A program made the translations under genes and the position numbers. Shown here piece by piece: positions 3,571 through 29,215 of a DNA stretch of 64,000 nucleotides. The DNA comes from Promethearchaeia archaeon (GTDB lineage: Archaea > Asgardarchaeota > Lokiarchaeia > Sigyniarchaeales > SOKP01): assembly GCA_036478875.1 (NCBI GenBank), contig JAZGEW010000025.1:10132-74131 (forward strand), given 5' to 3'. The first letter of the stretch is position 1, and every line of letters begins with the position of its first letter. The notes below the pieces were generated by a model that had not been told where the DNA came from, ran no database searches, and worked only from the letters and a program-made list of their open reading frames with translations.

Positions 3571-5853
3571 TTAGGTCCGTTTGTAAATAAACCGCTCCCA
3601 ACTTTTTCTGGAAGGCATTTCTTCAGGCATTCCCTTTCTTCTACGAATCTCCATAATGAGATCTTCTTCTAAAGAGCCAGGAACTTTTTCAAATCCTAAA
3701 AATTCATATCCAAAGAAAGCTCTTCCCTGTGTTGAGCCTCTAATATCATCAGCAATGCCGATAGTCTCTGCCGCAGGGATTTGACCTTGAATTCTGACAT
3801 ACTCACCCTCTGGAACAACATTGGTAATTCGACCACGTCGCTTTGTTATGATAGCAGTGACACTTCCTTCAGTTCCTTGTGGTGACTTTATGTCTATTTT
3901 CTGGACTGGTTCGAAGATATGTGGATTTGCGTCTAGCATGGCTAATGACATAGCAGAAAACGCCATTCCCGCAATCTGTCCATAAGATGTGTGTCTGGTA
4001 TCCTCGTGAATAGTCATATCCGTAAAAATTACTTTAATTCCAGTAGCAGGTTCCTTTGCTATAATACAATTACCTAGCCAATCTCTAAAAGCTGCACTCA
4101 AATAAGATTTAACACGATCAAATCTCTGTAATCCCGAAGTACCATTTACAAGAGCACTTCCTTGATATACATCAACAATACGTTTGGCTTCTTTTGCATC
4201 CCATCCAGCTTCTTCTCTAAGTATTTTAGCTCGATCTTTATCATTTTGTAAATCATTAACTTTCCCGGTTTCGATCAGATGTTCAGTTATTTCATCCAAA
4301 GGTTCTATGTATAATAAAATACGATTATGCGAGTTTGCTGATTTGGTATAATAAGTTGGACTTTTTTCAGTAATTTTTTCTCTATAAACGATTATTGGTT
4401 CTCCGATATTAATATTAACTTGTTTATTTATCCTTTTTACTAAAATCTCGATCTGTAATGGATCGATTCCTGATAGAATAAATTCTCCTGATTCTTCATC
4501 CCTTCTATATTCTGCTGTTGGATCTGCTTTAAGCCATTTGCTTACAACATCATCTAATTTATCAATTTCATGCGGATCTTTTGGTTTAATGCTTCTAGAG
4601 ACAACAGCTTCACATGCATAATGAATTTTTTCGAAAGAGGGTAATCTCTTCCTTTCTTCTCTATCTTTAGGTACGGCATTGGTCGACATAAAAGTCTCTC
4701 CAGAAGGGCAAATAAAACCAAATATTGCAAATAAATTACCTGCAGGGATCTTAGGAATGTCTAAAATGTCCGTAATTTCCATAACACCTAATCTTTTCAC
4801 TCGATTGCTCGAATCACTATTTACTAGATAAATTGAATCAGTTTGATTAAACGTACCCGAAAAAACACGACCTATAAGAGTTGGTTGAAAATTCCTCTTA
4901 GGATCAAGGAATATCTTGGTAATCATCCCGTACAGTGGCCCGTTTGGGTCACTCTTCTGTAGAGCTTTACCTAATTCGGAATTTAGGTCACCTCCCCATA
5001 TATGAGGGATTCTATATTTGGAAGCTGCAATAGGATCTGGAAGATGGTCTACAATCATTCTTAACATAGGCTCATCCAAAGGTAAATTATCTCTTAACCA
5101 CTGGATATCTCCTTCATTATATTTCTCAAAAACATCTTGAGGTTTCATACCTTTTTCAAGTAAAATTTCATAAGTAAAACCCCATCCATGTTTAGCTGAG
5201 CCAACCGCAACGGAATTTTTAGCAAAATCAATACTCCAATTTGATCCTTCAGGTCTTACTTTTTTAATTAAATCATTAATTTCTCTTGTGATTTTATCGA
5301 TTTTCTCAAAAGTTTCTTGAGGACTTAGTTTTAATTCACTTATCAATCTGTCAACCTTGTTAATATAAAGAACGGGTTTGCAGTATTCTTCACCAACAGA
5401 CAATCTAATATTAGTTTCTGTTTGTGTCATAACTCCTTCAAGAGCGTCTACTAAGATTATAGCACCATCTGAACCTCTGAGGGCTCGAGATACTTCCCCT
5501 GTAAAACTGATATGACCGGGAGTATCATTAAGTTGGATAATATAAGGTTCTTCGTCATCAGGTTTTCTCGAATCATTAAATGCCAGGAGTACTACAGAAG
5601 TAAAAATTGTGATGCCTCGCTCTTGCTCCTCGTCTTTCAGTAAACTAAGTATGTCTTAATTTATATCTGAATCGGTCATTTGGAGCTGTCCAGCGTCTTC
5701 AGGTCTCATAAGCCCAGCTCTGCGTAGCAAGTAGTCGGTGGCTGTTGTTTTGCCATGATCTATGTGAGCGGTGATTGAAAAGATTCTTTTCTTCTCATAT
5801 GAGCCAGAAGTAACGAGTGCGCTGATTTCATCAGGATTCTTTACTTTAACCAT
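3571..5853 (-). CDS. fusA: Translation elongation factor EF-2 family protein, two exons (5853..5665 + 5634..3571), 750 aa after splicing
   Basis: AHIDHGKTT lies in ORF 5656..5853. The same frame resumes after a 30-nt insert with DEEQERGITIF...NDTPGHISF...DALEGVMTQTET and joins ORF 3571..5430, which has NKVD and EF-2 domains II-V. May be the Asgard aEF-2 paralog. Confidence 0.92.
5635..5664 (-). other. Putative 30-nt bulge-helix-bulge mRNA intron in EF-2
   Basis: mRNA reads UCAG-AU^A-UAAAUUAAG-ACAUA-CUUAGUUUA-CUGA-AA^G: 4-bp central helix UCAG/CUGA, two 3-nt bulges and a 9-bp hairpin. Contains in-frame UAA. Removal gives TDSD|DEEQERGITI. Confidence 0.88.
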
Positions 5854-6021
5854 AATTTGTTCACAATGACTTTATATATTTATAACTAAGAAAGAAAAAG
5901 TATGAAGTCATAAAAATTTTATGAATTTCAGCTATAAATCACTAATCTATACCATTTTACGATAAGTACAAATTTATAATATCTAACTCTACTAAGATCT
6001 TATCTATTAAAATTAAGACGG

Positions 6022-7365
6022 ATGAAGGTTTTTTTTTTGAGTAATTATTTTGTATTGCATCTATCAACAACCATTGTAATTATCCTTGCTACATTAATAT
6101 TTGCTAGTGTATGTTTTAAAAGAAGGGATTTATACTCATGGCTTTTAGCATATATATCAGCTACTTTATCCGAACTCTTTAGGTTATTTTCTCAAGAACA
6201 ATATGATACTTTAGAATTAGTAGCTATTACATTTTCGGCTCTTAGTGTCTTGATATTTATAATTGCTGTGTCTCAAGAGTATTATCGAACTTTTTCGAAA
6301 ACTACTAAGATACAAACGACAGCAATTCTTTTACTATTCAATAGTCAACTAATTGGTACCTTTATACTACAAGCATTAATTGCACTTTTTCTATTCATAG
6401 CATTGTTCTTGAGTATAAGAATTTATTTTAAAAAAAGAACACCAACACATGCATTCATGAGTTTTATTCTAATTTCAGGATTCCTACAATTAATTGCTAG
6501 CATTCTTAGAGATCAAGGATTCTCCGGAGCTGATGAATTTATGGAATTCTCCAGAATTGTAATGGTTACTGTAATGCTTATAACTGGAGTTGTTGTTATT
6601 ATTGAAGATAAAATTCTTAGATCAGAAAATGAATATCGCTTAGCTTATAGTAGAGCAGAATTCTATAAAGATCTATTTGTTCATGATATTAATAATATTC
6701 TTCAAAATTTACAGTTTTCATTAGAAATTATGTCTCAAAATTTAGAGGGGTATGAAAAAAAAGAGAAATTAGATGAAATGCTAAAGATTGCGAAGTCCCA
6801 AGTAAATCGGGGGGCTGAACTAGGTTTAAATGTAAAAAATCTCTCTGATTTAGAGAGGGGAGCTATTAAAAATGAACCGATAGAAATATATAACGTACTG
6901 GAGCAAATTAGTAATGACATAAAAACAAAATTCTCTGAAGAAGAAATCAAGATTGATATTATTAGTGATCGAGATAAAATATATGTTAATGCGAATATAC
7001 TGTTAGAAGATGTATTCCGAATTATATTAAATAATGCAATAAGATATAATGATAATCCTATAAAAGAAATTTCAATTCAAATTTCTAAGATAGTAAAAGA
7101 TTTCGGCTCTGATATAAAAATAGAATTCATAGATAATGGAGTCGGAATCCCAGATACTATGAAAAAGACTATTTTTCAACCTGCTTATAAGAAGACAAAA
7201 GATTTTAGGAGAATTGGATTAGGATTATTACTTGTAAATGAAGTAATAGGAAGTATTTCCGGGAAAATTTGGGTTGAAGATAAGGTTCAAGGTGATCATA
7301 CACAAGGCAGCAATGTTATTATCTTAATCTCTGAAGCTTCTGGAATTTTAGATATAGAACGGTAA
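6022..7365 (+). CDS. Membrane sensor histidine kinase
   Basis: Multi-TM N-terminus, H-box HDINNILQN, N-box NNAIRY, DNGVGIP and GLGL. Confidence 0.92.
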   Translation: MKVFFLSNYFVLHLSTTIVIILATLIFASVCFKRRDLYSWLLAYISATLSELFRLFSQEQYDTLELVAITFSALSVLIFIIAVSQEYYRTFSKTTKIQTTAILLLFNSQLIGTFILQALIALFLFIALFLSIRIYFKKRTPTHAFMSFILISGFLQLIASILRDQGFSGADEFMEFSRIVMVTVMLITGVVVIIEDKILRSENEYRLAYSRAEFYKDLFVHDINNILQNLQFSLEIMSQNLEGYEKKEKLDEMLKIAKSQVNRGAELGLNVKNLSDLERGAIKNEPIEIYNVLEQISNDIKTKFSEEEIKIDIISDRDKIYVNANILLEDVFRIILNNAIRYNDNPIKEISIQISKIVKDFGSDIKIEFIDNGVGIPDTMKKTIFQPAYKKTKDFRRIGLGLLLVNEVIGSISGKIWVEDKVQGDHTQGSNVIILISEASGILDIER

Positions 7366-9559: not shown

Positions 9560-11365
9560 TCAACTTCCCCACCATGGATGATTGGTCTTTCTCATTAAAA
9601 TTATAAATTCTCTTAGAGCTTGTTTTTGATCTGTTGTTAATTCATCTATAAACCTTCCCATTAGTTGCCTGACATGAGATTCTGGGACATTAACAAATAG
9701 GGTTTCATCTTTTTCTATATCGCGACCTATTTCAATACCACGGATAGAAATAGCTACTTCTGAATCTTTAGGAGCTTTCTCGACTGTTTGCCCTTTATCT
9801 TGAATTTGATGTACTCTTCTAACTCTTTTTCCCTTATCAGTAATTAATTGAACTTTTGGATATAAAGTTCCAGCTTCAACATATACTCCAAAAACAGCGG
9901 GATCTGAATTTCGAAATATAAATTCTGGAAACATTTTAATTTTTGCCGGTAAAATAAGTTCACTTAAACCTTTCGCAGTATCTTCTGCTTTTCTTATTTC
10001 TGCATATTCGATATATTCTTCTAGTAATCGATAAATAACATTATTCGTGAAAATTCTTATATTATCTTTAATAGCTTGTTCATTAGCTTCAGGTAATATC
10101 GGAACATTAAATCCTAAAACTGTTGCAGAATATGGGTCTAGTTGTTTAACTATATTTGCGTTTATAATATCTTCTTTTTTTATTGGCCCTACATCAGCAA
10201 TACTGATTTTCACTCCATTTTGTGTAAAATGATTTTCTAACGCCTCAAGTGAACCTAAAGTATCTGCTTTTAAAACAACTCCTGCTTTATCAGTTTTTAT
10301 CCTAATACCTTCTACTTCGGATTCAATTTCTTTATATATGGATTCTTCTTCGGAAGGATCCATAATACCTCTAAATGGAGAACCTGCTACAACATCATCT
10401 ATATTTGGAGAGAGAATTTTAATACCTGCAGCAGCACTAACAACATCAACTGAATCAAATTTTTGTCTTGGATCTCGAATTTCATCTAGAGGTTTTGGAA
10501 TTAATAGAGCTCTTACTTTAGATTTAATAGGTTTTTCTAATCCCCCAACAATAAATTCATCTCCTTTATGAATTATACCATCATAAATAAGAACATCCAT
10601 TGTTTTTCCTTGACCTTTCTCTTTTTTAACTTCTAATACAACTCCTTTAGCTGATCCTTCAGAAAATTTAAGATTTGTAGTTAAATATTGCTGAACCAAT
10701 CCCATTAAAATCATTAAAAGTGTTGAAATTCCCTCTCCTGTTTTACCGCTAGTTGGAACAATCGCTATTTTCTTGGTAAAATCTTTTATTTTATCATAAC
10801 GATCAATTCCTTTGAATCCTTCTTCTAAAAAATTACCTATTATCTGTAAAATTTTTTCATCTAAGAAATCTTTAACATATGGTTTTTGTGATTGGTAGGA
10901 ATCGAGAAAATCAGCGTCTTGTTTTGATTTCCAACTAGAAATTCTATCTATTTTATTAGCAGCAATAACGAAAGGTGTTTTTCTCTCTTTTAAAATTCGT
11001 ACAGATTCCCAAGTTATAGGCATCGTTCCAGCAGTGACGTCAATAACTAAAATTGCAATATCTGCTACCGCGCCTCCTCTTCTTCGTAGATTTAAAAAGG
11101 CTGCATGACCTGGTGTGTCTACAACTAATATTCCGGGAAGATTAATTTCTTTTTCAGCAAATTCTTGTTTAGATTTTCTTAAAAATTCTTTTATATCTCC
11201 TTTTGGAAAATATGAAGCGCCAATGTGTTGAGTAATTCCTGCAGCTTCTCTTTGCTGAACAACAGTACCTCTGATATAATCTAGTATAGTAGTTTTTCCA
11301 TGGTCTATGTGACCAAGAATACAAACAATCGGAGCTCTAATTATCTTATTTTCAGTTTCAGTCAT
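9560..11365 (-). CDS. infB: Translation initiation factor aIF5B (IF-2)
   Basis: PIVCILGHIDHGKTT, GITQHIGA, DTPGH, NKID and KADTLGSLEAL. Confidence 0.97.
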   Translation of the reverse strand: MTETENKIIRAPIVCILGHIDHGKTTILDYIRGTVVQQREAAGITQHIGASYFPKGDIKEFLRKSKQEFAEKEINLPGILVVDTPGHAAFLNLRRRGGAVADIAILVIDVTAGTMPITWESVRILKERKTPFVIAANKIDRISSWKSKQDADFLDSYQSQKPYVKDFLDEKILQIIGNFLEEGFKGIDRYDKIKDFTKKIAIVPTSGKTGEGISTLLMILMGLVQQYLTTNLKFSEGSAKGVVLEVKKEKGQGKTMDVLIYDGIIHKGDEFIVGGLEKPIKSKVRALLIPKPLDEIRDPRQKFDSVDVVSAAAGIKILSPNIDDVVAGSPFRGIMDPSEEESIYKEIESEVEGIRIKTDKAGVVLKADTLGSLEALENHFTQNGVKISIADVGPIKKEDIINANIVKQLDPYSATVLGFNVPILPEANEQAIKDNIRIFTNNVIYRLLEEYIEYAEIRKAEDTAKGLSELILPAKIKMFPEFIFRNSDPAVFGVYVEAGTLYPKVQLITDKGKRVRRVHQIQDKGQTVEKAPKDSEVAISIRGIEIGRDIEKDETLFVNVPESHVRQLMGRFIDELTTDQKQALREFIILMRKTNHPWWGS

Positions 11366-11490
11366 TTTATGCCACGAATCTCAGATTATACATTTAATAT
11401 AATTTTACAATGCTTATGGTATAAAAATATTTACCATAGGTTTAGAATTTTATTTTAAAACTTAAAAAATTTCTAAGGAAAGATTGCAAA

Positions 11491-14385
11491 TTATTTAGGG
11501 TTAAGATATGGTTTTAAATATTGAGCAGTAAAAGATTTATTATTTGTAATAATTGCTTCAGGTGTGCCTTGAGTTACAATATTACCTCCTTTTTCACCAC
11601 CTTCAGGACCAAGATCAATAATATAATCAACAGATTTTACAATATCCATATTATGTTCAATAATAATTACAGTATTACCGTTATCTACTAATTTTTGAAG
11701 AACTTTTAATAAATAATTAATATCAAACGAGCTAAGACCTGTTGTAGGCTCATCTAAAATATAGAGCGTATTTCCAGTACTTGTTTTTCTCAATTCTCTA
11801 GCAATTTTTAAGCGTTGTGATTCTCCACCACTCAGAGTAGTTGAAGATTGTCCTAATTCTAAATAACCTAATCCAACATCTACTACTGTTTTAATTGTTC
11901 TTTTTAAATTTGGAAAACTATCGAAGAATTCTAAAGCTTGGTGAAATGTCATTTTTAATACATTATAGATCGATTTTCCGCGATATTTAATATCTAATGT
12001 TTCAGCATTATATCTTTTACCTTTACATAAATCACATTTTATATAGACATCAGGTAAGAAATACATTTCTTTTAAGATATATCCTGTGCCCTTACACTTT
12101 TTACAATGACCAGCTTTTGTGTTAAAACTAAATCTTCCTTTCTTATAACCCCTTTCTCTAGATTCTGGTAATCCCGCAAAAGTTTCCCTGATATAATCCA
12201 GTGCTTTAGTATAAGTAGCGGGGACTGATCTTGGAGTTCTTCCTATAGGTGATTGATCAATATTTATAATTTTATCTATCTTCTCAAAACCAATTATTTT
12301 ATCAAATTTTCCTGGATTTATTTTAGAACTCCGAGTATTTATTATATTATGGAGCCCTTTATATAAACAATCAATAATTAAGCTTGTTTTTCCCGCCCCA
12401 GAAACACCTGTAATACAAGTAAATACCCCTAAAGGGATTTTTACACTAATTCCCTTTAAATTATTTTCTTCTGCTCCTTTTATTTCAAGAATATCTTTAT
12501 TGATTTCTCGTCTACTCTTTGGAATTTCAATTCTTTTTTTCCCTGATAAATAATCTCCTGTTAAAGTATTTGAATTAATTATAGTTTCTATTGTCCCTTC
12601 AGCTACTATTTCACCTCCTCTTTCACCTGCTAATGGCCCTAAATCAATGATATGATCTGCATTACGCATTATTGCCTCATCATGTTCAACTACAATAACT
12701 GTATTTCCTAAATCCCTCAATTTTTTTAACATATTAATAAGACGAGAGATATCTCTTTGATGTAACCCTATACTAGGTTCATCTAATACATATAATACTC
12801 CTACTAAACTTGATCCTAATTGAGTAGCTAATCGAATTCTTTCCGCTTCTCCCACAGATAAAGTGTTTGAACGACGGTTTAATGAAATATAATCTAACCC
12901 AACATTATCAAGAAAAGCTAATCTATCCAATATTTCTTTTAACACTTCTTTAACTATTATCTTTTCAGTTTCATTTAATTGTAGTTCTTTGAAAAATCTT
13001 AGGGAATCCTTAACAGCAAAATTAGATACATCAGAAATACTAAGATTATTAATAGTTACAGCTAAACTTTCTGGTTTTAACCTTTTACCATTACACTGAG
13101 GGCAATCTATCCGATTCATAAAACTTTCATAAACATCACGAGCCCATTCTGAACGAGTTTCCATATATCTTCTGTGAAGTATTGGAATTATACCCTCAAA
13201 GGGTTTTACAACTTGCCAAGAAGATTTAAAATCACTATTTTGATTTTTATCGTCATTATTATCACTTTCAAAATGAAAATTAATTGATTCATTTTCAGAT
13301 CCAAATAATATTTTATGAAGTTTCTTTGGGTCAATATCTTTAATTGGAGTCTTTTTAGTGTCGAATCCATAATGCTTCGCAACTTGTACTATAGTTTGCC
13401 AAGAATATCCATTTAGAGATCCAAATCCCGGAATATCTCTAATTGGTGTCTCTTGCACCGGAACATCTAAATCATTTCCTAAAAGTAAACCATAGTCAAA
13501 TTCCATAACATTGCCTAAACCACTACAATATTTACAACTTCCATGAGGAATGTTAAAGGAAAACATTTTATGATCTATCGGAGGAAGTGAAATTTCACAA
13601 TCAATACAAGCAAGATGTTCAGAATAAATTTGTTCCTTTTTTTCGACAATCTCAACAATTACTAAACCATCTGATAGTTCTAATGCTGTTTCAATAGAAT
13701 CAGCTAGTCTTGTTTTAATATCCTTCTGCATTACTAATCTGTCAATAATAACGTTAATATTGTGCTTGACATTCTTTTCCATAGAGATGTCTTCATCTAA
13801 TGTATATTGAATCCCATCTATTTCTACTCTAACATATCCTTGTTTCTTTAAATCTTGTAAAAGCTCTTTGTATTCTCCTTTTCGATCTCGTATAATGGGG
13901 GATTTAACGATAAATTTTTGTTTTTCTCCCATAGAATCTAGTACTTGTTTAATAATTTGTTGGGGTGTTTGAGGTTTTATTTCTTTCCCACAATTAGGAC
14001 AGTGAGGAATACCAACATTGGCAAATAATAATCGATAATAATCATAAATTTCAGTCACTGTACCAACTGTACTTCGAGGATTTTTAGAGAGTGGTTTTTG
14101 CTCAATTGCAATTGCAGGAGATAAACCTTCTATTGAATCCACATCAGGTTTATCCATTTCTCCTAAAAATTGCCTTGCATAACTCGATAATGATTCTAAG
14201 AATCTTCGTTGACCTTCTGCATATAAAGTATCCATTGCTAAACTACTCTTTCCACTTCCACTAATTCCTGTAATAACAACAAGTTTATTACGAGGAATAA
14301 TAACATCAATGTTTTTAAGGTTGTTCTGTCTTGCTCCTTTTATAATTATAGAGTCTACTTTCATTTTATATACTGTATATATCAA
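11491..14385 (-). CDS. uvrA: Excinuclease ABC subunit A
   Basis: Two ABC ATPase modules (GISGSGKS, GVSGAGKT), EGQRRFLESLS and zinc fingers. Confidence 0.97.
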   Translation of the reverse strand: MIYTVYKMKVDSIIIKGARQNNLKNIDVIIPRNKLVVITGISGSGKSSLAMDTLYAEGQRRFLESLSSYARQFLGEMDKPDVDSIEGLSPAIAIEQKPLSKNPRSTVGTVTEIYDYYRLLFANVGIPHCPNCGKEIKPQTPQQIIKQVLDSMGEKQKFIVKSPIIRDRKGEYKELLQDLKKQGYVRVEIDGIQYTLDEDISMEKNVKHNINVIIDRLVMQKDIKTRLADSIETALELSDGLVIVEIVEKKEQIYSEHLACIDCEISLPPIDHKMFSFNIPHGSCKYCSGLGNVMEFDYGLLLGNDLDVPVQETPIRDIPGFGSLNGYSWQTIVQVAKHYGFDTKKTPIKDIDPKKLHKILFGSENESINFHFESDNNDDKNQNSDFKSSWQVVKPFEGIIPILHRRYMETRSEWARDVYESFMNRIDCPQCNGKRLKPESLAVTINNLSISDVSNFAVKDSLRFFKELQLNETEKIIVKEVLKEILDRLAFLDNVGLDYISLNRRSNTLSVGEAERIRLATQLGSSLVGVLYVLDEPSIGLHQRDISRLINMLKKLRDLGNTVIVVEHDEAIMRNADHIIDLGPLAGERGGEIVAEGTIETIINSNTLTGDYLSGKKRIEIPKSRREINKDILEIKGAEENNLKGISVKIPLGVFTCITGVSGAGKTSLIIDCLYKGLHNIINTRSSKINPGKFDKIIGFEKIDKIINIDQSPIGRTPRSVPATYTKALDYIRETFAGLPESRERGYKKGRFSFNTKAGHCKKCKGTGYILKEMYFLPDVYIKCDLCKGKRYNAETLDIKYRGKSIYNVLKMTFHQALEFFDSFPNLKRTIKTVVDVGLGYLELGQSSTTLSGGESQRLKIARELRKTSTGNTLYILDEPTTGLSSFDINYLLKVLQKLVDNGNTVIIIEHNMDIVKSVDYIIDLGPEGGEKGGNIVTQGTPEAIITNNKSFTAQYLKPYLNPK

Positions 14386-14405
14386 TTAATATTAAAAGAA
14401 AAATT

Positions 14406-16412
14406 TTACACTTGTACTTTATAAGTTTGCTTAAATTCTTTTATCTTGTCTCTTAAGTAAGCAGCATCCTCAAACCTTAGTTCTTTTGCTGCCATGAACA
14501 TCTTATCCTCAAGATATTGAACTACAATATCAATATCTCCTTCTTTTTCTAATTCCTCTATTTTATCTTTTACTTTTTGTTTTAACCTTTTAACCTCTCT
14601 TTCTTTAAATTCTTGTCCATCTGAAAGAGATTTTAAAATATTTTTTTTAATTGTTTGAGGCGTGATGTTATTCTCTTCATTATGTTTTATCTGTTTATTT
14701 CTTCTTCTAGTTGTTTCCTCAATCGCCGCTTTCATTGCGGGTGAAATTCTATCTCCATATAATATAGCTTTTCCTTCAACATTTCTTGAAGCCCTACCAA
14801 TAGTTTGTATTAAGGAACGTGTATCTCGTAAAAATCCTAATTTATCGGCATCTAAAATAGCAACTAATTGAACTTCTGGAAGATCTAATCCTTCTCTTAA
14901 AAGATTAATACCAACTAAAACATCATAAGTCCCATCTCTCAATTGACGTAAGATTTCAAATCTTTCAACTGTACCTACTTCCGAGTGTAAATAAGTTATT
15001 TTCAACCCTAGTTCATTATAATAATCAGCAATATCTTCAGACATTCTTTTCGTAAGAGTTGTTACAAGAGTCCTACCGTTTTTTGCAATGACTTTTCGTA
15101 TTTCTCCTAACAAATCATCAATTTGATTTTCTGCAGGTCTTATTTCTACCATCGGATCAACAAGACCAGTTGGTCGAATTATTTGTTCTGCATAAATTCC
15201 TCCACTTTTTTCTATCTCGTATTTTGCTGGTGTCGCACTCATAAAAATTATAAACTTAATTTTATTCTCCCATTCTTCAAATGTAAGGGGTCTATTATCA
15301 TAGGCACTCGGTAAACGCCATCCGAAATTTACAAGATTCTTTTTGCGAGAGCGATCTCCACCTATCATTCCATGGATTTGCGGGATAGTTATATGAGATT
15401 CATCAACCACTATCAAAAAGTCTTCTGGAAAATAATCTACTAAAGTCATAGGAGGCGTTCCTTGTGGCCTACCATCTAAAGGTCTGGAATAATTCTCTAC
15501 ACCTTTACACCACCCCATTTCTTTCATCATTTCTAAGTCAAATTTTACTATCCTCTCAATATTTTGTGCTTCGGCGTACTTCTTCTGACTTTTGAAAAAT
15601 TGGATTCGTTCTTCCAGTTCTTCTCTTATTAATTCAAGAGCTTTCACTTTATTTTCATCCGGTATGATAAAATGAGTCGCAGGAAAGATCCTATAATTAG
15701 TTACTGTTCTTAATGCATTATTAGATAAGGGGTGAATCTCTGTAATTGTTTCAATTTCATCCCCAAAAAGAGAGATTCTTACTGCATTGTTTAAATATGC
15801 AGGATAGATATCAATTATATCTCCTTTTACTCGTACATTTCCAGGTTTGAATTCAATATCATTCCGTTCGTAATTCATTTTTACAAGGTTCTTTAACATT
15901 TCAGATCTTTTTATTGTCATACCAGTTTCCAAATAGAGCGCAATCTTTTCCCAGAGTTCTGGATTTCCCAAACCATAAATGCAAGAAACTGATGCTACAA
16001 TAATTACATCTTTTCGTGTTCTTATGGCATGTGCTGCTGCTAATCTCAACCGTTCAATTTCTTCATTAACACTAAAATCTTTCTCAATGTATAAACCAGA
16101 TACAGGCATATAAGCCTCAGGTTGATAGTAATCATAATAACTTACAAAATAATGGACTGCATTTTCAGGAAATAGATCTTTTAACTCATTATACAATTGC
16201 GCAGCTAATGTCTTGTTTGGCGCCATAACTAACGTAGGTTTTTGTATTTCTTGAATTATGTTAGCAATAGTGAAAGTTTTACCTGTGCCGGTAGCACCTA
16301 ATAAAGTTTGAAACCTTTTTCTATCTTTGATCCCAGTTTTAAGAGCTTGGATAGCAGATGGCTGGTCACCCATTGGTTTAAAATCAGAGTGAATTTTGAA
16401 ACTTACATTCAT
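14406..16412 (-). CDS. uvrB: Excinuclease ABC subunit B
   Basis: GATGTGKT, YFVSYYDYYQPEAY, DESH, GINLLREGLDLPEV and C-terminal UVR domain. Confidence 0.97.
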   Translation of the reverse strand: MNVSFKIHSDFKPMGDQPSAIQALKTGIKDRKRFQTLLGATGTGKTFTIANIIQEIQKPTLVMAPNKTLAAQLYNELKDLFPENAVHYFVSYYDYYQPEAYMPVSGLYIEKDFSVNEEIERLRLAAAHAIRTRKDVIIVASVSCIYGLGNPELWEKIALYLETGMTIKRSEMLKNLVKMNYERNDIEFKPGNVRVKGDIIDIYPAYLNNAVRISLFGDEIETITEIHPLSNNALRTVTNYRIFPATHFIIPDENKVKALELIREELEERIQFFKSQKKYAEAQNIERIVKFDLEMMKEMGWCKGVENYSRPLDGRPQGTPPMTLVDYFPEDFLIVVDESHITIPQIHGMIGGDRSRKKNLVNFGWRLPSAYDNRPLTFEEWENKIKFIIFMSATPAKYEIEKSGGIYAEQIIRPTGLVDPMVEIRPAENQIDDLLGEIRKVIAKNGRTLVTTLTKRMSEDIADYYNELGLKITYLHSEVGTVERFEILRQLRDGTYDVLVGINLLREGLDLPEVQLVAILDADKLGFLRDTRSLIQTIGRASRNVEGKAILYGDRISPAMKAAIEETTRRRNKQIKHNEENNITPQTIKKNILKSLSDGQEFKEREVKRLKQKVKDKIEELEKEGDIDIVVQYLEDKMFMAAKELRFEDAAYLRDKIKEFKQTYKVQV

Positions 16413-16553
16413 CGTATTAATTAAAGAACTAATGAGATAATTTATAATAAAATAAAATTAAATATATTGACAATAAGACTATAGAAATTCTAATGAATAG
16501 TAACTTTTGATTTTTACTGAAAGGACAAGATGGTAGATAAATTCACTACCATA

Positions 16554-19500
16554 CTATTGTACAATTTCTTCGTGAGTGTCCTCAGCCCCTTCTTGAGTAC
16601 GAACCAATATTTCTATTAACTCGTCCTTAGTAACCCAAGGAAGTTTGTCAATAATCACACTCATATCAATTGTTAATTCTAGTGAATCTCCAGAGCTAAT
16701 CTCTATAATTTCATTATTGAAAGCATCCAAGGAGAAGTATGTATTATTTATATACACAGAATCGAGGACCACATTTAATAAGCCTTCATTTTGAATTAAG
16801 ATTGTCAAAAGTCCATCCTCATATGCTGAAGTTCCTGAATCATCAATAGTTATATTATAATAAGTAGAATCCGTATAAGCGTTCAATGTTTCAATTAATT
16901 CTGCCGAAGAGTTTGTTGTTATCTTTACAATACATTCATCTGAGTTATTAATCATTAGGTTTGGAATATCGAATGTAACTATCGCGCATTCTTGTATATC
17001 TAATGAAGAATCTCCATATGTGTACATAAGATTACTTACCCGAATATTATTTACATATGTATTGTTAAGACTTATTGGTTCATTTCCCGTATTTTTAATT
17101 ACCAATTTTCCTGTTTCATTGGTATATATATAAGATACGGTAGTATTTTCGACATTTTCAATTATTTGAATATCAGATTCAGCTTTAATTGTATGAATAT
17201 ATCCAATATCCGAAGTAACAGTCCCATTAATTCCAAAATTTCCAGTAACACTTACTAATATTTCTTCGTTAACCTCTCCAGAAATACCTGGAACACCGGT
17301 TGCATCTACTTTAATTACTGCTTCTTCATCAGTTTTTAAATTTAAATTTCCAAATTTTATGTCAAAAGGAACTTTCTCTAAAGTTTCAGTCAAGTAAACT
17401 GAATCAAGCCCAAAAATAATTTCTCCGGTATTTTTAACCCGTATTTCTAAAATTATAGTTCCGTCATATTTATAAGCATAGGATTTATCTAAATCGATTG
17501 GAATATGTTTCCTAAAATCGCCGTTTAGAGTTGCTAAAAGTTCGGGAGATAGAATTCGTTCCTGACTTAATATTGAGATAGAAAAGTTTTCAATACTTGA
17601 TGTGAATAATATTTCATCAGAAATATTATTTGGAGTAGCTACACCAATCTTATTAAAGGTCGAAATAGGATGAAAATTTGCTGTTGCATTTGGTATAAGA
17701 ATATTAGCTTTATCTGTTGGTCCAAGGATAGAGGAACCACTTAAATATATCGTTTGGTTAAATGTATTCTTTACTGTGTCATTATTTATGTAAAATCTAT
17801 CTAAAATGATAGTTGAGTCTCCAATATTTTCCACTTCTAAATAAACATCAACAGTGGTATTGCTCTTCTGAATAACTTTACTATTTTCTTTATTAATTTT
17901 GATTTCTCCTTCTTGTGCTTCTTTAACAAAAAAATTGCTAGTGGAATTTATAAAAACATAGTTTCTATCGTATAACGCTTTTGATTGAGCTGCAACGTTT
18001 ATTTTAACAACATCATTCATTTTGAAATTTGAACCTTCAGTATCAATCCAGACAAGCTCTTCAGTTCCATCTTCAACTGTCTTATTGCCCATAATAAATG
18101 GATATTCTTCTCCATTAATTTCTACACCGGTAATGAGCAAATCTTTTTTACCTGTATTTTTCAATTTAAAAGTAGCATAACCACTGTCAAAAACTTCTGG
18201 ATTTTGAATAACAAAACTGGAATCCAATACAGTATAATCAATCCTATATAATTTTACTAAGTGATATTTCGAAATATATTCTGGAATAAATATCATAGAT
18301 TCATATTCTCCATTCTCAGGTATATGAGATTTCCATGTATTTCCATCATCATCATATCTGCCTTGTATAGATCTAGTATAACTATCTTGAAGTTCATTTT
18401 GAGCATTTTCATTGGAGGTAGGTTCACCAGCAAACATTAATTTAACGAGTTGACTTTCAAACCATTGATCTTCTACTAATCCAGTTGATGCATTTCGATA
18501 TTGGCTTTCATCGAAGACAGAATTTTCTGCCCAATTATCTTCTTCCCATCCCATTTGTTTATATATTGCATAATTATCATTACAAATCTGAACCATCCAT
18601 GTCCATTTTCCCTCGTCGCCACCTAAACCTGGAATGAGAAACCCAAAATAGACCAAAACGTAATCCGCATGAAGCCTCCTAAATGCTTTAGCACTGTAAA
18701 TCTCATTAGTCTGCATCAATGCCATACCAGTTAGACCTATCCTAGTTGAATTCATTGTTGCATTATCATTCACAGTTGTTACATTCCCTACCGGAGTAAG
18801 CCAATAACCGTAATCCCACCAGGAGACCACCACATCTGTTCCTTTTAAATTGTTTTTCATCCAAGTTAAAGATCCCTCCCAATCAGTAAGAGCCCCGCCA
18901 GGTACCATTTGTACATGCGACATCTGATCAACAGCAATATCAGTTGCATGAACAACTTGAGCAATACATAAAAAACCAATAACAATATAAACAGCAAATA
19001 CTTCTGAATTTCCTAATGTTTCCTTCAACTGTCTTTTTCGCCTTCTACTAATTCCAACTTTTCTTTCTCCTAAGAAACTACCGAATATTTTTAATATATT
19101 AGCCAAACCATATGCTCCCGCTAATGCTGCTGCTGGAGCAAAAATTAGTATAATACGAATCATACTTCCAGTAAAATAGTACATTAAGATAATAAAGGCA
19201 ATTACAAAAATATCAGCAGCATTTAATCTTTTAAAACAGAAATATACCCCTAAAGGTACAAGAATTAAAGGAATTAACGTGTTATAATAGAAAACACTCC
19301 ATGCACTTGGCATTTGTTCTGCTACTGAAGCAACTAGAGCGATATTTTCACGAAAAAGAGGATTAAGAATTGTCCAAAACCGCGAACCAAAACCAAAAGG
19401 TATAATTTGAGGAGCAACCCAAATTATCACTGCAAATACTAATACTGTTGGAATGAAACCCCACTTTATTATATTTATTAAGTTATCATATAATTTTGGG

Positions 19501-20396
19501 TGTTCGCTCTTTTTTGTATAAATGATGTGAAATATAAGTATAATAATCGTAACAAGAAAAATACCTCCAACATCTAGATCTGAAAATAAACTTCCATGAT
19601 TAAATTTTACATATAACGAAAATATTAGTAACCCTGTACCTTGGACCCCAGCATAAGATATTAATACATTTTCATTATATTTATTCGTTAAAATCAAGAT
19701 TGCACAAAGAATAGGGAATATTAAAAAAACAAATTGATATCCTCCCCAACTTAATGACAAATAACCTAAAAATATACCTCCGATTATTGAATGTGAAAAT
19801 TTTCCTCCACTTATTGCCTTTAAAAAGAAGAGAAATGTCATTAATGTAGCAAATACACCAATTGTTTCATTATCGAAAAATCCGGCGGTAGTACGTTGTA
19901 AGAATCCTGGACTGAAAGCTAAAAAGAATGCTGCAAATAATCCTGTAGCACGATTGAGTACTTCTTTTCCTAAAAGGTACATAACAATTACTGTTATTCC
20001 CCCCATAAATGCCGGAAAGTAAAAACAGATATCATATAATGATATTGGTAATCCAAAAAAATGAAAAATTTTATATATTGAGACTACTGTCATAGTTAGG
20101 CCGGGTCGTAGACCTCCTCTATAATACCCTCCAGGATACCAGCTTTTATAATCTGTCCAATTAAAATATTCATAAAGTGTGTGATCATTTAAATATTCAG
20201 CATTGTACCATTGGATCCAAGGATCAAATGCTTTGATTAGTGTTACCCCTCTGATAAGTGGGCTTAATCTAATAAGAATGGATAGAGTTACTAATAAAAA
20301 TAATGCTATAAAAAATAGAATATTACTAGTTTTTACTGATATTGATGTCCTGACACGATCACGGAAGTTCTTTAGTGAAGTAGAGATCTTTACCAT
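16554..20396 (-). CDS. aglB: Oligosaccharyltransferase AglB/STT3 with long repeated beta-rich C-terminal extension
   Basis: FDPW, DNE, SVAEQ, WWDYG, DNAT and DEGKWTWM motifs. Confidence 0.95.
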   Translation of the reverse strand: MVKISTSLKNFRDRVRTSISVKTSNILFFIALFLLVTLSILIRLSPLIRGVTLIKAFDPWIQWYNAEYLNDHTLYEYFNWTDYKSWYPGGYYRGGLRPGLTMTVVSIYKIFHFFGLPISLYDICFYFPAFMGGITVIVMYLLGKEVLNRATGLFAAFFLAFSPGFLQRTTAGFFDNETIGVFATLMTFLFFLKAISGGKFSHSIIGGIFLGYLSLSWGGYQFVFLIFPILCAILILTNKYNENVLISYAGVQGTGLLIFSLYVKFNHGSLFSDLDVGGIFLVTIIILIFHIIYTKKSEHPKLYDNLINIIKWGFIPTVLVFAVIIWVAPQIIPFGFGSRFWTILNPLFRENIALVASVAEQMPSAWSVFYYNTLIPLILVPLGVYFCFKRLNAADIFVIAFIILMYYFTGSMIRIILIFAPAAALAGAYGLANILKIFGSFLGERKVGISRRRKRQLKETLGNSEVFAVYIVIGFLCIAQVVHATDIAVDQMSHVQMVPGGALTDWEGSLTWMKNNLKGTDVVVSWWDYGYWLTPVGNVTTVNDNATMNSTRIGLTGMALMQTNEIYSAKAFRRLHADYVLVYFGFLIPGLGGDEGKWTWMVQICNDNYAIYKQMGWEEDNWAENSVFDESQYRNASTGLVEDQWFESQLVKLMFAGEPTSNENAQNELQDSYTRSIQGRYDDDGNTWKSHIPENGEYESMIFIPEYISKYHLVKLYRIDYTVLDSSFVIQNPEVFDSGYATFKLKNTGKKDLLITGVEINGEEYPFIMGNKTVEDGTEELVWIDTEGSNFKMNDVVKINVAAQSKALYDRNYVFINSTSNFFVKEAQEGEIKINKENSKVIQKSNTTVDVYLEVENIGDSTIILDRFYINNDTVKNTFNQTIYLSGSSILGPTDKANILIPNATANFHPISTFNKIGVATPNNISDEILFTSSIENFSISILSQERILSPELLATLNGDFRKHIPIDLDKSYAYKYDGTIILEIRVKNTGEIIFGLDSVYLTETLEKVPFDIKFGNLNLKTDEEAVIKVDATGVPGISGEVNEEILVSVTGNFGINGTVTSDIGYIHTIKAESDIQIIENVENTTVSYIYTNETGKLVIKNTGNEPISLNNTYVNNIRVSNLMYTYGDSSLDIQECAIVTFDIPNLMINNSDECIVKITTNSSAELIETLNAYTDSTYYNITIDDSGTSAYEDGLLTILIQNEGLLNVVLDSVYINNTYFSLDAFNNEIIEISSGDSLELTIDMSVIIDKLPWVTKDELIEILVRTQEGAEDTHEEIVQ

Positions 20397-23774: not shown

Positions 23775-23797
23775 TTCTAATTAAATATTTATTTTTA

Positions 23798-25156: not shown

Positions 25157-25193
25157 TTATCTTTTTTATTCAGAAAAAATTAAGTGTGTTGTA

Positions 25194-25412: not shown

Positions 25413-25507
25413 AAGATCAGTTTTTTTTGTAAAACCAAAAAAAATTTATTTGATTTTGTATATTTTAAAGTAAGGTTATCAAATCCTAATCATTGGGAGT
25501 AAAAATT

Positions 25508-26008
25508 ATGGCTAAAAAAAAAGCAACCAAACCAGAAGATACGGAAGAAGATACAATTGATGAACTAGTTGATGATTTATTAGAGGATGAAGAAATTAAG
25601 ACTGTATATCCAAAAATAGATGATAAAGAGAAACTTGAACCATCACCCACATCACCCGAAGAATCAATAGAGGAGGAAGAGGAAGAATTTGAGATTGAAG
25701 AAGAACCAAGATTTCCTGATTATAAGTATCTCAATGTAGGAATAAATAAAGGACTGGGAGAAAATGACTATGAAATATCAGTTGAAGGTCAATCACATGG
25801 ATTCTGTAATATTCTTGTAAAACACTTATTAGAAATTGAGGGTGTTAGTATCGCTGCTTATAAGGTAAATAATGTAGAATTACCAAAAATTTTTATCCGA
25901 CTTGAAAATTCAAATGATTACAAAATTAAAGATATTTTACATAAAGGAATTGAATCACTTAGAGCTAAAGTCATCGAAGTGCAAAAAATATTTAAAAAAC
26001 TTACTTAA
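25508..26008 (+). CDS. rpoL: RNA polymerase subunit L (Rpo11) with acidic N-terminal extension
   Basis: EGQSHGFCNILVKHLL...VSIAAYKV matches the RpoL/RPB11 pattern; conserved csl4-rpoL context. Confidence 0.85.
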   Translation: MAKKKATKPEDTEEDTIDELVDDLLEDEEIKTVYPKIDDKEKLEPSPTSPEESIEEEEEEFEIEEEPRFPDYKYLNVGINKGLGENDYEISVEGQSHGFCNILVKHLLEIEGVSIAAYKVNNVELPKIFIRLENSNDYKIKDILHKGIESLRAKVIEVQKIFKKLT

Positions 26009-26066
26009 AACAGTATTCTTTCTTTTATGAAAAATTTTATAAGAATTCTTAATTCTACTTATCTTA

Positions 26067-26519
26067 ATGGAGTATAAGTATTTAATTACTGATTTAAATC
26101 TAAATAAATCACAAAAGATTATCGGAACCGATAAAGGTTTGGCAAAAATCGGAGACGGAATCGTAAATGTTGCTTATTCAGTAGCAAAATCTATTTTTCT
26201 TACAAAAAACAATCCAAATGATAATACTATTAGAACAGGAAAAAAAGTAGGGAAAACGATTTTAGGTGCTGCCCTAAAAAATGCAAAAATGAAAAGTTTT
26301 GCAAAAACTAGGGCTAATGCTCATGATCTTGCTGATACTGTTGAATCAGTATTAGCGTACGTGTGGCTTGATAATAAAATCTCTCTAAAAGAAATTATTA
26401 ACTTTTTAGCAGATAATCTTTCGGGGGATCTTTATAATAGAACTGAAGAAATTGAAAAAGCAACCATCGCTTTTACCAATCTTTTAAATTATATTAAAAA
26501 ATATCTGCCTGAAAAATAG
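26067..26519 (+). CDS. Archaeal RNase III-like family protein
   Basis: DKGLAKIGDGIVN and AHDLADTVES; conserved position after rpoL. Confidence 0.8.
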   Translation: MEYKYLITDLNLNKSQKIIGTDKGLAKIGDGIVNVAYSVAKSIFLTKNNPNDNTIRTGKKVGKTILGAALKNAKMKSFAKTRANAHDLADTVESVLAYVWLDNKISLKEIINFLADNLSGDLYNRTEEIEKATIAFTNLLNYIKKYLPEK

Positions 26520-26523
26520 AAAA

Positions 26524-27084
26524 ATGAAAGATAATCCCATAACAATTGGATTTGACGATGCAACTTTTAAGTTAAAAACAAGTGTTAAAACAACTCAATT
26601 AATTGGGGTAATCTGTCAAGGAACAAGAATGGTAAGAGTTGTAAGAGATGATATAAAGATAGATGGCAACGATGCAACTGAAAAAATAATAAAACTAGTT
26701 AGAGACAATGAAAAACATGTACAATATATTTTAACTCATACAATAACTTTTGGTGGGTTTAATCTTGTTAATTTAACTGATATCTATAATGAAACAGGAA
26801 AACCTATTATCGCTATAACAGAACGAAAAGTAGATTTCGATTCTGTAGAAAGCGCTCTAAAAATTAAATTCCCTCATACATATAAAAATAAATTAAGATA
26901 TATAGTTGAGGCGGGAAATTTATATGAAACAGAAGTGAATACAGCAGGTGGTATATCAAAAATATTTTTTCATTACAAGGGTATTAGCGTTAAAGAAGTC
27001 GAGTCACTTTTAGAAAAAATATGTATAGACTCCAAACTACCAGAATCAGTGAGAATGGCACACATAATTGGAAAAATATTTTGA
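26524..27084 (+). CDS. DUF99 family protein (endonuclease V-like / endonuclease dU)
   Basis: IGFDDA, DGNDAT, TFGGFN and LPESVRMAHII. Confidence 0.88.
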   Translation: MKDNPITIGFDDATFKLKTSVKTTQLIGVICQGTRMVRVVRDDIKIDGNDATEKIIKLVRDNEKHVQYILTHTITFGGFNLVNLTDIYNETGKPIIAITERKVDFDSVESALKIKFPHTYKNKLRYIVEAGNLYETEVNTAGGISKIFFHYKGISVKEVESLLEKICIDSKLPESVRMAHIIGKIF

Positions 27085-27100
27085 GAGTTAATATTTTTAT

Positions 27101-27574
27101 CTAATCTTTTTCAATTTCATATTCCAAAATTTCACGCATTCTTTCTCGCAGGTCCAATCTGATAGCAGACATTCCATAGGTGGGTATACCTAATTTTTTC
27201 TGAATTTTCTTTGCGTTTAATGCACCTGGAAGATCTTGTTTATTCGCTATAGCAATAATTTTTGTAGTCATATATCGTGAGAACTTTTTAAATGCATCCT
27301 TAGTTTTTTCAATATTATCTTCTGTAGAATCACATACTAAAACAGTCAAGCCTGCACCTCTTAAGAAATCTTGCCACATAAATTGATAACGTTCTTGACC
27401 TCCAAAATCCCAAATATTTACCTTTTTCCCATTGAGTACAGAATTCTCAATATCTAATCCTACTGTCGGATTTCTTTCTTTCGATATCTCTCGACCTTGA
27501 AGTAAAGATACTAAAGATGATTTTCCAACGCTACTTAATCCTAATAGACATATTTTTTGTTTTGTTGTATGAAC
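27101..27574 (-). CDS. Small GTPase (Arf/Rab-like); start codon uncertain
   Basis: The frame of ORF 27101..27379 is open upstream to 27580 and encodes KICLLGLSSVGKSS, PTVG and WDFGGQERY, followed by NKQD and SA. Confidence 0.85.
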   Translation of the reverse strand, partial: VHTTKQKICLLGLSSVGKSSLVSLLQGREISKERNPTVGLDIENSVLNGKKVNIWDFGGQERYQFMWQDFLRGAGLTVLVCDSTEDNIEKTKDAFKKFSRYMTTKIIAIANKQDLPGALNAKKIQKKLGIPTYGMSAIRLDLRERMREILEYEIEKD

Positions 27575-27877
27575 TTTTAATCAACCTTTTCTAAATACAA
27601 TGTTCTTATGTAGAAAAGGCAAATAAAGCTACAAAAAAGAAAATAATATTCGTATGATACCTACATATTCTTTAAAGAATATCTTTATTCTCTAAAATCT
27701 ATTCCTTAGGACTTAAAAAAATTGAAATTAGAAAATAAATACAATTTTCAAAAAATTTAGCTTAAGCTAAAACTCCTTGCTAGAAATAACTGTTATATAA
27801 ATTCAATTCGAAATATTTTTATGGTATTAGCATTAATAAAAAAAGAGGATTATAAAAAAAACAGTATTTTTTGAATT

Positions 27878-29215
27878 TTAAGCTCCAGTTTCAATGTCCT
27901 TAACGATGCCGACCGCGACGGTTTTAGGTTTAATCTGAGAAATTCAGATTGTTCTACCCATATCGCGTACAGCAAATCGGCCCATTTCTGGAAAGTCGTT
28001 ATATTTTTCAAGGCACATTTTTTTAATCGGCTGTAGTTCAACAATGGCAGATTCATTTTTCTTGAGAAACTTAGGTGAGTCTTCTATCACTGCTCCTGTT
28101 TTTTGGTCTAATTTTTTAACTAAACTCGAAAATTTCGCAGCTACTTGTGCTGTATGTGCATGGACTACAGGGGTATAGCCTTGTGCAAGTGCTGTAGGGT
28201 GCCAGATAACTATAATCTGTCCCGTCCATTTTCCCTTTGGTGTGATTACCGTAGGTGGATCTTTTGGATGCCCTAAACAATCTCCTCGACTTGCATCCTC
28301 TAATGTAATACCTCGAATACTAAACCCTATGTTGTCACCAGGAATTGCTTGTTCAATCTCTTCATGATGCATTTCAATACTTCGAATTTCCCCTTCAAAT
28401 TCAGTTGGCATGATAAGAATTTTATCTCCTTTCTTTAAGATTCCAGTTTCAACTCTACCTACAGGAACTACTCCAGTTCCCTTAATTGAATAGGAATCTT
28501 GAATGGGAAGTCTTAAAGGTTTACCAGTCGGTTTTTCAGGAAGAATAAATTGATCAATTGCTTCCATTATAGTTGGTCCATCATACCAAGCTAATTTATC
28601 ACTCTTCTTTGATAAATTATCCATAGCCATTCCACTAGTTGGAATGTAATTTACATCCTTGAAACCAATGCTTTTAAGAAGATCACCAACTGAATCCTTG
28701 CATTCCTTAAATCGTTCCTCAGAATAATCGTAAACATCAGCTTTATTGATAGCAACAACTAATTGTTTTACACCTAGAGTTTGTGCTAAATAAGCATGTT
28801 CACGAGTTTGCCCATTAGCTGCGATTCCAACCTCCATTTCTCCTTTCTTACCTGAAACAACGAGGATAGCAGCATCAGCTTGGCTCGCGCCAGTTATCAT
28901 GTTCTTGACAAAATCTGCGTGGCCTGGCGCATCGATGATTGTGAAGTACTTTGACTTGGTTTCAAATTTTCGAAAAGCAAGGTCAATTGTAATACCTCGC
29001 TGTCTCTCCTCTTTCAACCTATCGAAGACAAAGGCATAAGACCATGAGTCTCTATCATATTCTTTCGCAAGTTTTTCTAATTCACGTGCTTCTCGTTCTG
29101 AGACAGCCCCAGCTTCTATGAGTAAAGCACCCATCATTGTACTTTTGCCGTGGTCAATGTGCCCGATTATGACTAAATTTAAGTGACTTTTTTGTTTTGA
29201 GCTCATTTTAATCAT
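27878..29215 (-). CDS. tuf: Translation elongation factor EF-1alpha, two exons (29215 or 29206..27954 + 27923..27878)
   Basis: GHIDHGKST, RGITID, DAPGH and NKAD. After a 30-nt insert the same frame supplies the missing conserved C-terminus TVAVGIVKDIETGA-stop. Confidence 0.95.
27924..27953 (-). other. Putative 30-nt bulge-helix-bulge mRNA intron in EF-1alpha
   Basis: mRNA reads CGCGAU-AU-GGGU-AG^A-AC-AAUCUGA-AUUUC-UCAGAUU-AA-ACCU-AA^A-ACC-GUCGCG: central helix GGGU/ACCU, 3-nt bulges, 7-bp hairpin and exon-exon helix CGCGAU/GUCGCG. Contains in-frame UGA. Removal gives RDMGR|TVAVG. Confidence 0.87.

Follow-up and report, generated by a model that had tools for sequence, protein, structure and literature searches.

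How can a gene for an essential elongation factor be expressed when a stop codon interrupts its reading frame? This question is raised by a stretch of 64,000 nucleotides (nt) from a Promethearchaeia archaeon (contig JAZGEW010000025.1 of assembly GCA_036478875.1; the whole stretch is referred to here as the window), in which two genes for translation elongation factors (EFs), namely an EF-2-family gene and the EF-1alpha gene, each carry an insert of exactly 30 nt with an in-frame stop codon. According to the original prediction, these inserts are messenger RNA (mRNA) introns of the bulge-helix-bulge (BHB) type, removed by the tRNA-splicing machinery, that is, the endonuclease EndA and the ligase RtcB. 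This core reading is supported by orthologous inserts in related genomes, by their turnover among species, by conserved base pairing, by inserts of frame-shifting length and by the presence of the enzyme genes. It is very probable that the inserts are BHB introns of mRNAs, with EndA and RtcB as the most likely splicing enzymes, splicing itself being predicted from sequence. The source genome of the window (G000) is a metagenome-assembled genome (MAG) with 88% completeness, 6.4% contamination and 29% G+C, and its assignment to the Asgard archaea agrees with its closest relatives, which are recorded as Promethearchaeota/Promethearchaeia MAGs.

Two interrupted elongation factor genes

Both inserts lie exactly where they had been placed, and with the stops that had been described. 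In the EF-2-family gene at 5853..3571 (-), the sole in-frame TAA falls within the 10-codon insert 5664..5635, and in the EF-1alpha gene at 29215..27878 (-) an in-frame TGA is found inside the 10-codon insert 27953..27924. The features of the two genes, with the predicted introns and BHB cores (H5 and H3 denote the strands of the central helix H), are as follows.

5665..5853 (-), EF-2-family exon 1, 63 codons, with the AHIDHGKT P-loop (open reading frame 5656..5853)
5635..5664 (-), predicted EF-2-family intron at position A, 30 nt with in-frame TAA; hairpin h' 5663..5641, H3 5640..5637
5634..5670 (-), predicted EF-2 BHB core; H5 5670..5667, 5' bulge 5666..5664, 3' bulge 5636..5634
3571..5634 (-), EF-2-family exon 2, 687 codons and stop, with EFG_III, EFG_IV and EFG_C domains
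27954..29215 (-), EF-1alpha exon 1; TIGR00483, 583.2 bits, cut-off 540.1
27924..27953 (-), predicted EF-1alpha intron, 30 nt with in-frame TGA; hairpin region 27952..27930, H3 27929..27926
27923..27959 (-), predicted EF-1alpha BHB core; H5 27959..27956, 5' bulge 27955..27953, 3' bulge 27925..27923
27914..27967 (-), predicted outer helix h between the EF-1alpha exons, formed by CGCGA (27967..27963) and UCGCG (27918..27914)
27878..27923 (-), EF-1alpha exon 2, split codon, last 14 codons and TAA

The proposal that a cut after the second base of each bulge restores the frame holds for both genes: deletion of exactly 30 nt from each yields a continuous protein with the junctions predicted beforehand. 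Pfam domains cross the inserts, since GTP_EFTU forms a single stretch over residues 21-272 of the EF-2-family protein, and GTP_EFTU_D3 together with GTP-eEF1A_C runs uninterrupted to residues 428-429 of EF-1alpha. In NCBIfam, EF-1alpha scores above its cut-off, and the best match of the EF-2-family protein is aEF-2 TIGR00490, with 616.6 bits, under the cut-off of 738. Intact intron-less copies elsewhere would have spoken for decay of the copies in the window; in the 88%-complete genome, neither a second EF-1alpha copy (the next match is 31% identical) nor an intron-less second copy of either EF-2 gene was found.

Architecture of the predicted splice motif

The design ascribed to both inserts, which consists of a 4-bp helix H, two 3-nt bulges, a hairpin (h') with a 5-nt loop and an in-frame stop, is present in each of them. 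H arises by pairing between a tetramer of exon 1 and one close to the insert's 3' end, and the 23 nt between the 5' bulge and H3 make up the hairpin. The EF-2 motif combines UCAG/CUGA as H with the bulges AU|A and AA|G and a hairpin of 9 bp; that of EF-1alpha combines GGGU/ACCU with AG|A and AA|A, and its hairpin of 7 bp has two basal mismatches. When stretches of 51-71 nt were folded and compared with 200 shuffles, z values of -3.53 and -1.93 were obtained for EF-2, and of -1.95 and -5.13 for EF-1alpha, the latter corresponding to a 71-nt minimum free energy (MFE) fold of -25.9 kcal/mol that none of the 200 shuffles equalled. At EF-2 position A the outer exon-exon helix is weak, with 2 bp in the MFE fold, and the motif is therefore of the relaxed HBh' type.

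The same anatomy recurs when the analysis is extended to 11 distinct introns, seven from the source genome and four from relatives. In the frame-restoring register, H is paired at 44 of 44 positions, whereas a shift of the 3' partner by 1-3 nt leaves 14-17 of 44 paired, and seven of these introns are independent tests of the pairing, four having been found with H as a criterion. Ten introns have a hairpin region of 22-25 nt with 6-9 of the nine outermost positions paired, and the intron of an FGGY kinase gene has a 26-nt region with six outer pairs followed by an irregular inner part. RNase HII (7 pairs, 99.5% paired) and EF-1alpha have a strong outer helix h. In every case, including introns of 29, 31, 32 and 33 nt, a cut after the second bulge base restores both the frame and the conserved motifs, and the predicted junctions are exactly those of intron-less orthologues. 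In the canonical tRNA case, splicing takes place at 37/38, and H includes the first two bases of the anticodon (PMC4090602); from this we infer that the cut rule used here would correspond to the register of the canonical tRNA BHB site.

The coding sequence itself may bear the mark of the motif. In EF-1alpha exon 2 (27878..27923), five successive third codon positions are G or C despite the genome's G+C content of 29%, relatives mostly having A or T there, and through these bases exon 2 forms its outer helix with exon 1. Such codon use may reflect an adaptation to the splice motif, or else a flanking exon segment that was transferred together with the intron.

Further interrupted genes in the source genome

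Three of the six translational GTPase genes recovered by a search with EF-1alpha are interrupted in the source genome. That both elongation factors of the window carry inserts is correct, and it understates what is found, since inserts interrupt three EF genes and at least four genes of other kinds. At least five further genes of this genome are thus affected, and genomes of the same genus carry the same or other inserts of 29-33 nt, which some species have and others do not. The additional cases, with their predicted introns, are listed below (genome:contig and locus).

G000:C13, locus L008 3584..3613 (-), second EF-2 paralogue, 30 nt with TAA, in the P-loop, where it parts the Lys codon of HGKT from the Thr codon
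G000:C110, L081 970..999 (-), RNase HII, 30 nt, inside DEAGRG
G000:C144, L082 1015..1044 (-), LsrF-like DeoC-family aldolase, 30 nt, within the DeoC domain
G000:C8, L083 574..606 (+), FGGY kinase, 33 nt, inside ITNQRET
G000:C34, L084 1188..1218 (-), mevalonate kinase, 31 nt and frame-shifting, inside LFGEH

The last four were spotted by eye in scan lists through their conserved junction peptides, and the census of at least seven interrupted genes is a lower bound, reached by eye and homology, rather than a statistical estimate. The second EF-2 intron has the same BHB geometry, and its hairpin is very weak; of the genus genomes that were searched, only G000 and G005 have a stop in this gene, and G005 is contiguous at the G000 site. 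Each interrupted locus represents one gene and not two, because Pfam domains span the in-frame inserts unbroken (RNase_HII, DeoC, FGGY_N and, three times, GTP_EFTU). Exon 2 of the mevalonate kinase gene begins at position 11 of the TIGR00549 profile. Stops were absent from three other families of the source genome, namely tRNA-synt_1 of the class I aminoacyl-tRNA synthetases (3 matches), Cpn60_TCP1 of the thermosome (2) and AAA (14). A partial AAA gene at G000:C17:18549-18704 (+) was considered as an intron case and rejected, as it is a C-terminal half with no N-terminal half upstream, that is, a gene fragment.

A partial second RNase HII gene lies at a contig end (G000:C7:2-481 (-)). It is insert-free, shares 67% identity with the gene on C110 and, in view of the 6.4% contamination, seems to be a piece of the gene of another family member rather than a paralogue.

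Distribution and conservation in related genomes

The EF-2 insert at position A is found in 15 of 54 genomes of the genus, and a different 30-nt insert with three stops, at position B just before IDHGK, in four of the 54; one genome carries both, and in the remaining ones EF-2 is uninterrupted and shorter by exactly 30 nt. The exons of insert-bearing EF-2 genes stay open, with 79-96% protein identity across carrier species. In the alignment of position A (14 complete sequences), 97.4% of pair cells are paired against 25-47% in slid registers, and H is paired at 100%; variation is free in the loop and almost nil in H and the bulges, and within the hairpin A-U alternates with G-C at one pair and U-A with U-G at two others. 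Position B (four sequences) gives 96.2% against 25-50%, again with H at 100%. The 60-nt intron windows of EF-2 in G043 (L073) and G050 (L039) are 93-95% identical, compared with 75.6% for the whole gene. This similarity could be due to structural constraint, retained ancestry or lateral transfer, shared ancestry with structural constraint being as good an explanation as transfer.

In RNase HII, in-frame stops occur in the gene in 50 of 52 matching genus genomes (54 searched), G022 matching only downstream of the site, and the insert was read directly in all 30 loci fetched, with G024 having a 29-nt, frame-shifting version. In a class-wide draw, the family's other genera comprise 19 genomes with stops in the gene and 19 without, and outside the family none of 11 matches has stops, as judged from stop counts and with three matches that begin past the site. 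Within the family, the insert persists even though protein identity drops to about 57-60%. The alignment of 29 sequences has 93.4% of pair cells paired against 24-46% when slid, with H at 95.5% and the exon-exon helix at 99.5%; one of 500 shuffles reaches this paired fraction, and the synonymous sites of exon 2 show almost no variation.

The 31-nt insert of mevalonate kinase is present in 10 of 14 matching genus genomes, and the other four are contiguous with exactly the predicted junction. Pairing amounts to 84.6% against 37-51% slid, with H at 86.1%, and it includes a compensatory change in which an exon glycine codon GGU->GGC is matched by an intron A->G (CG 7, UA 2). Taken across the alignments, pairing kept at 85-97% against 24-51% in slid controls, together with some compensatory changes, argues that the structure of the introns is under selection. 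Synonymous sites appear to have been recruited for the splice motif in RNase HII, EF-1alpha and mevalonate kinase.

The C-terminal insert of EF-1alpha was found at its site in none of 29 + 51 orthologous loci (some of them from the same genomes). Four further insert positions are found in other species, and the inserts located there include the following.

After HGK: G001, G005 and L113 (32 nt); L108 (33 nt, two stops)
Before IIGHIDHGK: G019 (30 nt)
After PGHAD: G004, and L099 with the same insert and flanks (30 nt)

The EF-1alpha gene of G019 (L028) also has a lone in-frame TAA at aligned codon 172, outside any insert, where relatives have a Glu codon; it is either a sequencing error or a real nonsense change.

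Splicing enzymes and tRNA introns

The source genome encodes the proteins that such splicing would need. PF01974, which represents EndA, gives three matches over the cut-off, and these are of two kinds (C59/C156 and C36). The proteins of C59 (L077 1180..1773) and C156 (L078 962..1564) are closely similar, which may be due to a recent duplication or to two strains in one bin. EndA uses a Tyr-His-Lys catalytic triad; both of these proteins keep the catalytic His, and in C36 a His is absent from that position according to a reading of the sequence. The enzyme of the source genome appears to be of the two-subunit, broad-specificity type, and Asgard EndA has been assigned an (alpha-beta)2 architecture with an L1 loop tied to relaxed motifs (PMC5829648). 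RtcB is represented by one PF01139 match of 573 bits, and the gene for archease (145.8 bits) adjoins it on the opposite strand (G000:C79:20273-22088).

ARAGORN lists 30 tRNA genes, three of them with implausibly long introns, and 16 of 27 tRNA genes measure at least 100 nt. Clear BHB introns of 29-30 nt with hairpins of 22-23 nt occur at non-canonical positions of tRNA-Pro (C132), tRNA-Thr (C136) and tRNA-Ala (C93). The tRNA introns of this genome share their size class and hairpin design with the inserts in protein genes.

Proposed mechanism and alternative explanations

The gene would be transcribed with its insert, and in the pre-mRNA a tetramer of exon 1 would pair with one near the 3' end of the intron to give helix H, with a 3-nt bulge on either side and the rest of the intron folded into the hairpin h' of about 23 nt; in some genes, a helix h between exon 1 and exon 2 would close the motif. 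EndA would then cut each bulge after its second base, and RtcB, aided by archease, would ligate the exons, the intron of 29-33 nt probably being circularised. Full-length protein would be made from the spliced mRNA alone, as translation of the unspliced form would run into a stop or a frame shift. A regulatory use of this step is conceivable, and it is pure conjecture that the supply of EFs would in this way be tied to the activity of EndA and RtcB.

Several observations weigh against this reading. A search for RNA evidence gave none: in public runs the share of sampled words peaks at 0.36, so that no run contains this strain, and the reads of four runs mapped over 27700-29300, one of which contributed nothing, leave the EF-1alpha intron and exon 2 uncovered. 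Contigs from one DNA run and one RNA run that end at 27950-27957 continue into an intron-less exon 2 with many synonymous differences, which identifies them as relatives that lack the intron, uninformative on splicing. The inserts in EF-1alpha and in the P-loop of the second EF-2 gene occur only in the G000 MAG, which is the sole source of DNA support for them. As regards structure, several introns, EF-2 position A among them, have a weak outer helix h or none; the second EF-2 intron has a hairpin of marginal stability, with 0.0 kcal/mol on its own and -1.3 kcal/mol for 61 nt (z = +1.4); H of RNase HII includes three G-U pairs; and the outermost H pair of mevalonate kinase is unpaired in five of nine distinct sequences. 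Covariation is modest, with 1-3 double-change pairs per alignment, and kinship inflates the shuffle tests. Finally, a scan of the genome for a 4-bp H and the joining of open reading frames, with insert lengths of 14-100 nt and true as well as decoy geometries, gave 1289 matches for the 30-nt geometry against 1327 for a decoy, and hence no genome-wide enrichment of the motif. Addition of a hairpin criterion (30 nt, at least 8 of 9 arm pairs) left 19 matches against 5 and 15 in decoys, loops ending in TTC numbered 15 against 8 and 15, and a dicodon filter of coding potential did not separate true from decoy matches and lost three real cases. Since the motif count is no better than that of decoys, the claim that the introns exceed chance rests on homology and on the related genomes.

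If the interrupted genes were pseudogenes or decaying copies and the inserts junk insertions, it would be natural for every insert to contain stops or shift the frame, and both the contamination of the MAG and the intron-less RNase HII fragment on contig C7 would fit. Decay would, however, have had to strike the sole EF-1alpha copy found and both EF-2 paralogues, to leave the exons of carriers open, intact and under purifying selection at the protein identities given above, to spare the pairing, and to keep the RNase HII insert in place while the protein diverged across a whole family, which makes this explanation vanishingly unlikely. The comparisons argue instead for a real, evolving class of protein-gene introns. 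It is extremely unlikely, too, that the inserts are artefacts of assembly, products of strain heterogeneity or DNA elements excised before expression. The two inserts specific to G000 would fit such an origin, yet assembly artefacts are ruled out as a general cause because orthologous inserts with substitutions occur in many independent assemblies, including the single-contig G023 and G006, and an artefact would not reproduce the BHB register.

Other alternatives accept the genes as functional and differ in how the insert is overcome. A short gap with a hairpin and an early stop is what characterises gene 60 of phage T4, where the gap lies inside the open reading frame and is bypassed by an event on the ribosome that needs matched take-off and landing codons. 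The inserts resemble it in being short, in their hairpin and in a stop soon after the break, and a ribosome that skips them or reads through them by recoding is a very unlikely explanation all the same: matched codons are absent from both EF genes (EF-2 exon 1 ends with the codon GAU and its gap with AAA, and in EF-1alpha the junction falls inside a codon), the conserved trait is an exon-intron pairing with two 3-nt bulges that bypassing does not need, and tRNA genes, which are not translated, carry the same design. A single insert contains up to three stops, and read-through is excluded because genes that are intact in all other respects carry inserts of four lengths (29, 31 and 32 nt, as well as 33 nt, there with two stops). 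There remains removal from the RNA by another endonuclease and ligase or by some ribonucleoprotein in place of EndA and RtcB, which is unlikely, if the least so of these alternatives. Several motifs are relaxed, with a weak h or a G-U-rich H, which would suit a different enzyme. The RNase domain of IRE1 (PF06479) gave no match in the 88%-complete genome, nor in the control genomes, a search that was thus without a positive control. The geometry and cut positions, on the other hand, match those of EndA substrates exactly, the genome encodes EndA, RtcB and archease, and cbf5 and HVO_1309 show that EndA acts on mRNAs (PMC10485636, PMC7714728). Removal as BHB introns by EndA and RtcB is, as stated at the outset, the best explanation and a very probable one.

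Relation to known systems

In eukaryotes, XBP1/HAC1 mRNAs contain a very short intron that is removed without a spliceosome, IRE1 cutting twin stem-loops, and its splicing alters the frame or the C-terminus of the protein. The predicted introns resemble it in their very small size, in dispensing with a spliceosome and, as regards animals, in an RtcB-family ligase, and they differ from it in structure, which is BHB here and not twin stem-loops (for the RtcB/TSEN context, see PMC10485636). The closest precedent in archaea is the intron of crenarchaeal cbf5 pre-mRNA, which is cut by a hetero-oligomeric splicing endonuclease, after which the exons are ligated, and which has been gained and lost among related species (Watanabe 2002, Yoshinari 2006 and Yokobori 2009, as cited in PMC10485636, PMC7714728 and PMC5829648). 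Both cases concern mRNA introns with turnover at the level of species, splicing being predicted in the present one. Unlike cbf5, the introns described here affect other genes in another phylum, with at least seven interrupted genes in one genome that include EF-1alpha and two EF-2 paralogues, and they have a stereotyped length of 29-33 nt and several alternative positions per gene across species. With archaeal tRNA BHB introns they share the 4-bp H, the two 3-nt bulges, the flanking helices and presumably the enzymes; unlike those, their host is an mRNA, and the motif's exon half is made of codons. A second mRNA example is an intron of HVO_1309 in Haloferax volcanii, which is cut by EndA at BHB sites (PMC7714728, PMC10485636). 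As described there, that intron is located in a single gene's 5' untranslated leader, the host being a euryarchaeon whose enzyme is of the alpha2 type, whereas the inserts in the Asgard genes interrupt reading frames.

A 2023 review names cbf5 and HVO_1309 as archaeal mRNA substrates and considers it likely that more exist, and a 2026 preprint, which reports heavy and repeatedly gained tRNA introns in Asgard archaea, has no occurrence of the word mRNA. A search of full texts, supplements being outside the scope, found no account of BHB introns in EF genes or in the protein genes of Asgard archaea. The mechanism is known; what is new is the hosts, the number of introns per genome, their stereotyped size and their visible turnover among species. 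Introns of tRNA-splicing enzymes in protein genes have been known from very few archaeal mRNAs, compared with at least seven in one genome of this Asgard lineage. Three of the seven lie in essential elongation factors, and positions, gains and losses differ among sister species. The origin of introns, the adaptation of coding sequence to a splice motif and the dependence of EF supply on EndA and RtcB thereby become testable in the archaea closest to eukaryotes. There is also a practical side, in that gene callers will list such genes as truncated or broken, with distortion of completeness estimates, of phylogenomic marker sets (in which EF-1alpha and EF-2 are standard) and of metabolic reconstructions as a consequence.

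A broader view of these elements can be put forward tentatively: they may be mobile or recurrently generated micro-introns of 29-33 nt in tRNA genes and at highly conserved sites of protein genes in one Asgard family, gained and lost at the time-scale of species, with copies that may move between sites sharing GGUAR|A. If so, they would be a living prokaryotic case of mRNA intron proliferation with protein-only splicing, in those archaea that are most closely related to eukaryotes, an idea that we regard as possible and still somewhat doubtful. The EF-1alpha, second EF-2 and RNase HII introns of the source genome all sit at GGUAR|A and are 42-62% identical over 48 nt (62% for second EF-2 and RNase HII, 52% for EF-1alpha and second EF-2), against a mean of 35% (sd 9.5) for 28 pairs, which hints, in a small sample, at copying between similar sites. 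Such copying has reportedly been found for tRNA introns of Thermoproteales. The 2026 preprint on Asgard tRNA introns alludes to shared intron families in that order. A search for a wider intron family with the 18-nt hairpin core of RNase HII, allowing up to four mismatches, gave 279 matches, compared with 157-342 for 10 shuffled patterns, and so showed no enrichment.

Neighbouring genes in the window

The genes between the two interrupted EF genes, at 9560..20396 (-), are uninterrupted and encode aIF5B, UvrA, UvrB and a 1280-residue STT3-type oligosaccharyltransferase; because they separate the two EF genes, the EF-2 and EF-1alpha introns do not belong to one operon. Rfam gave no match in the window at the gathering score. 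A gene for aldehyde:ferredoxin oxidoreductase at 29515..31379 (+) is broken into two frames that overlap, owing to a shift of 1 nt within six consecutive A at 29865..29870. A BHB intron was rejected as the cause of this break on account of the 1-nt shift, and a sequencing error, a real frameshift or slippage could each account for it.

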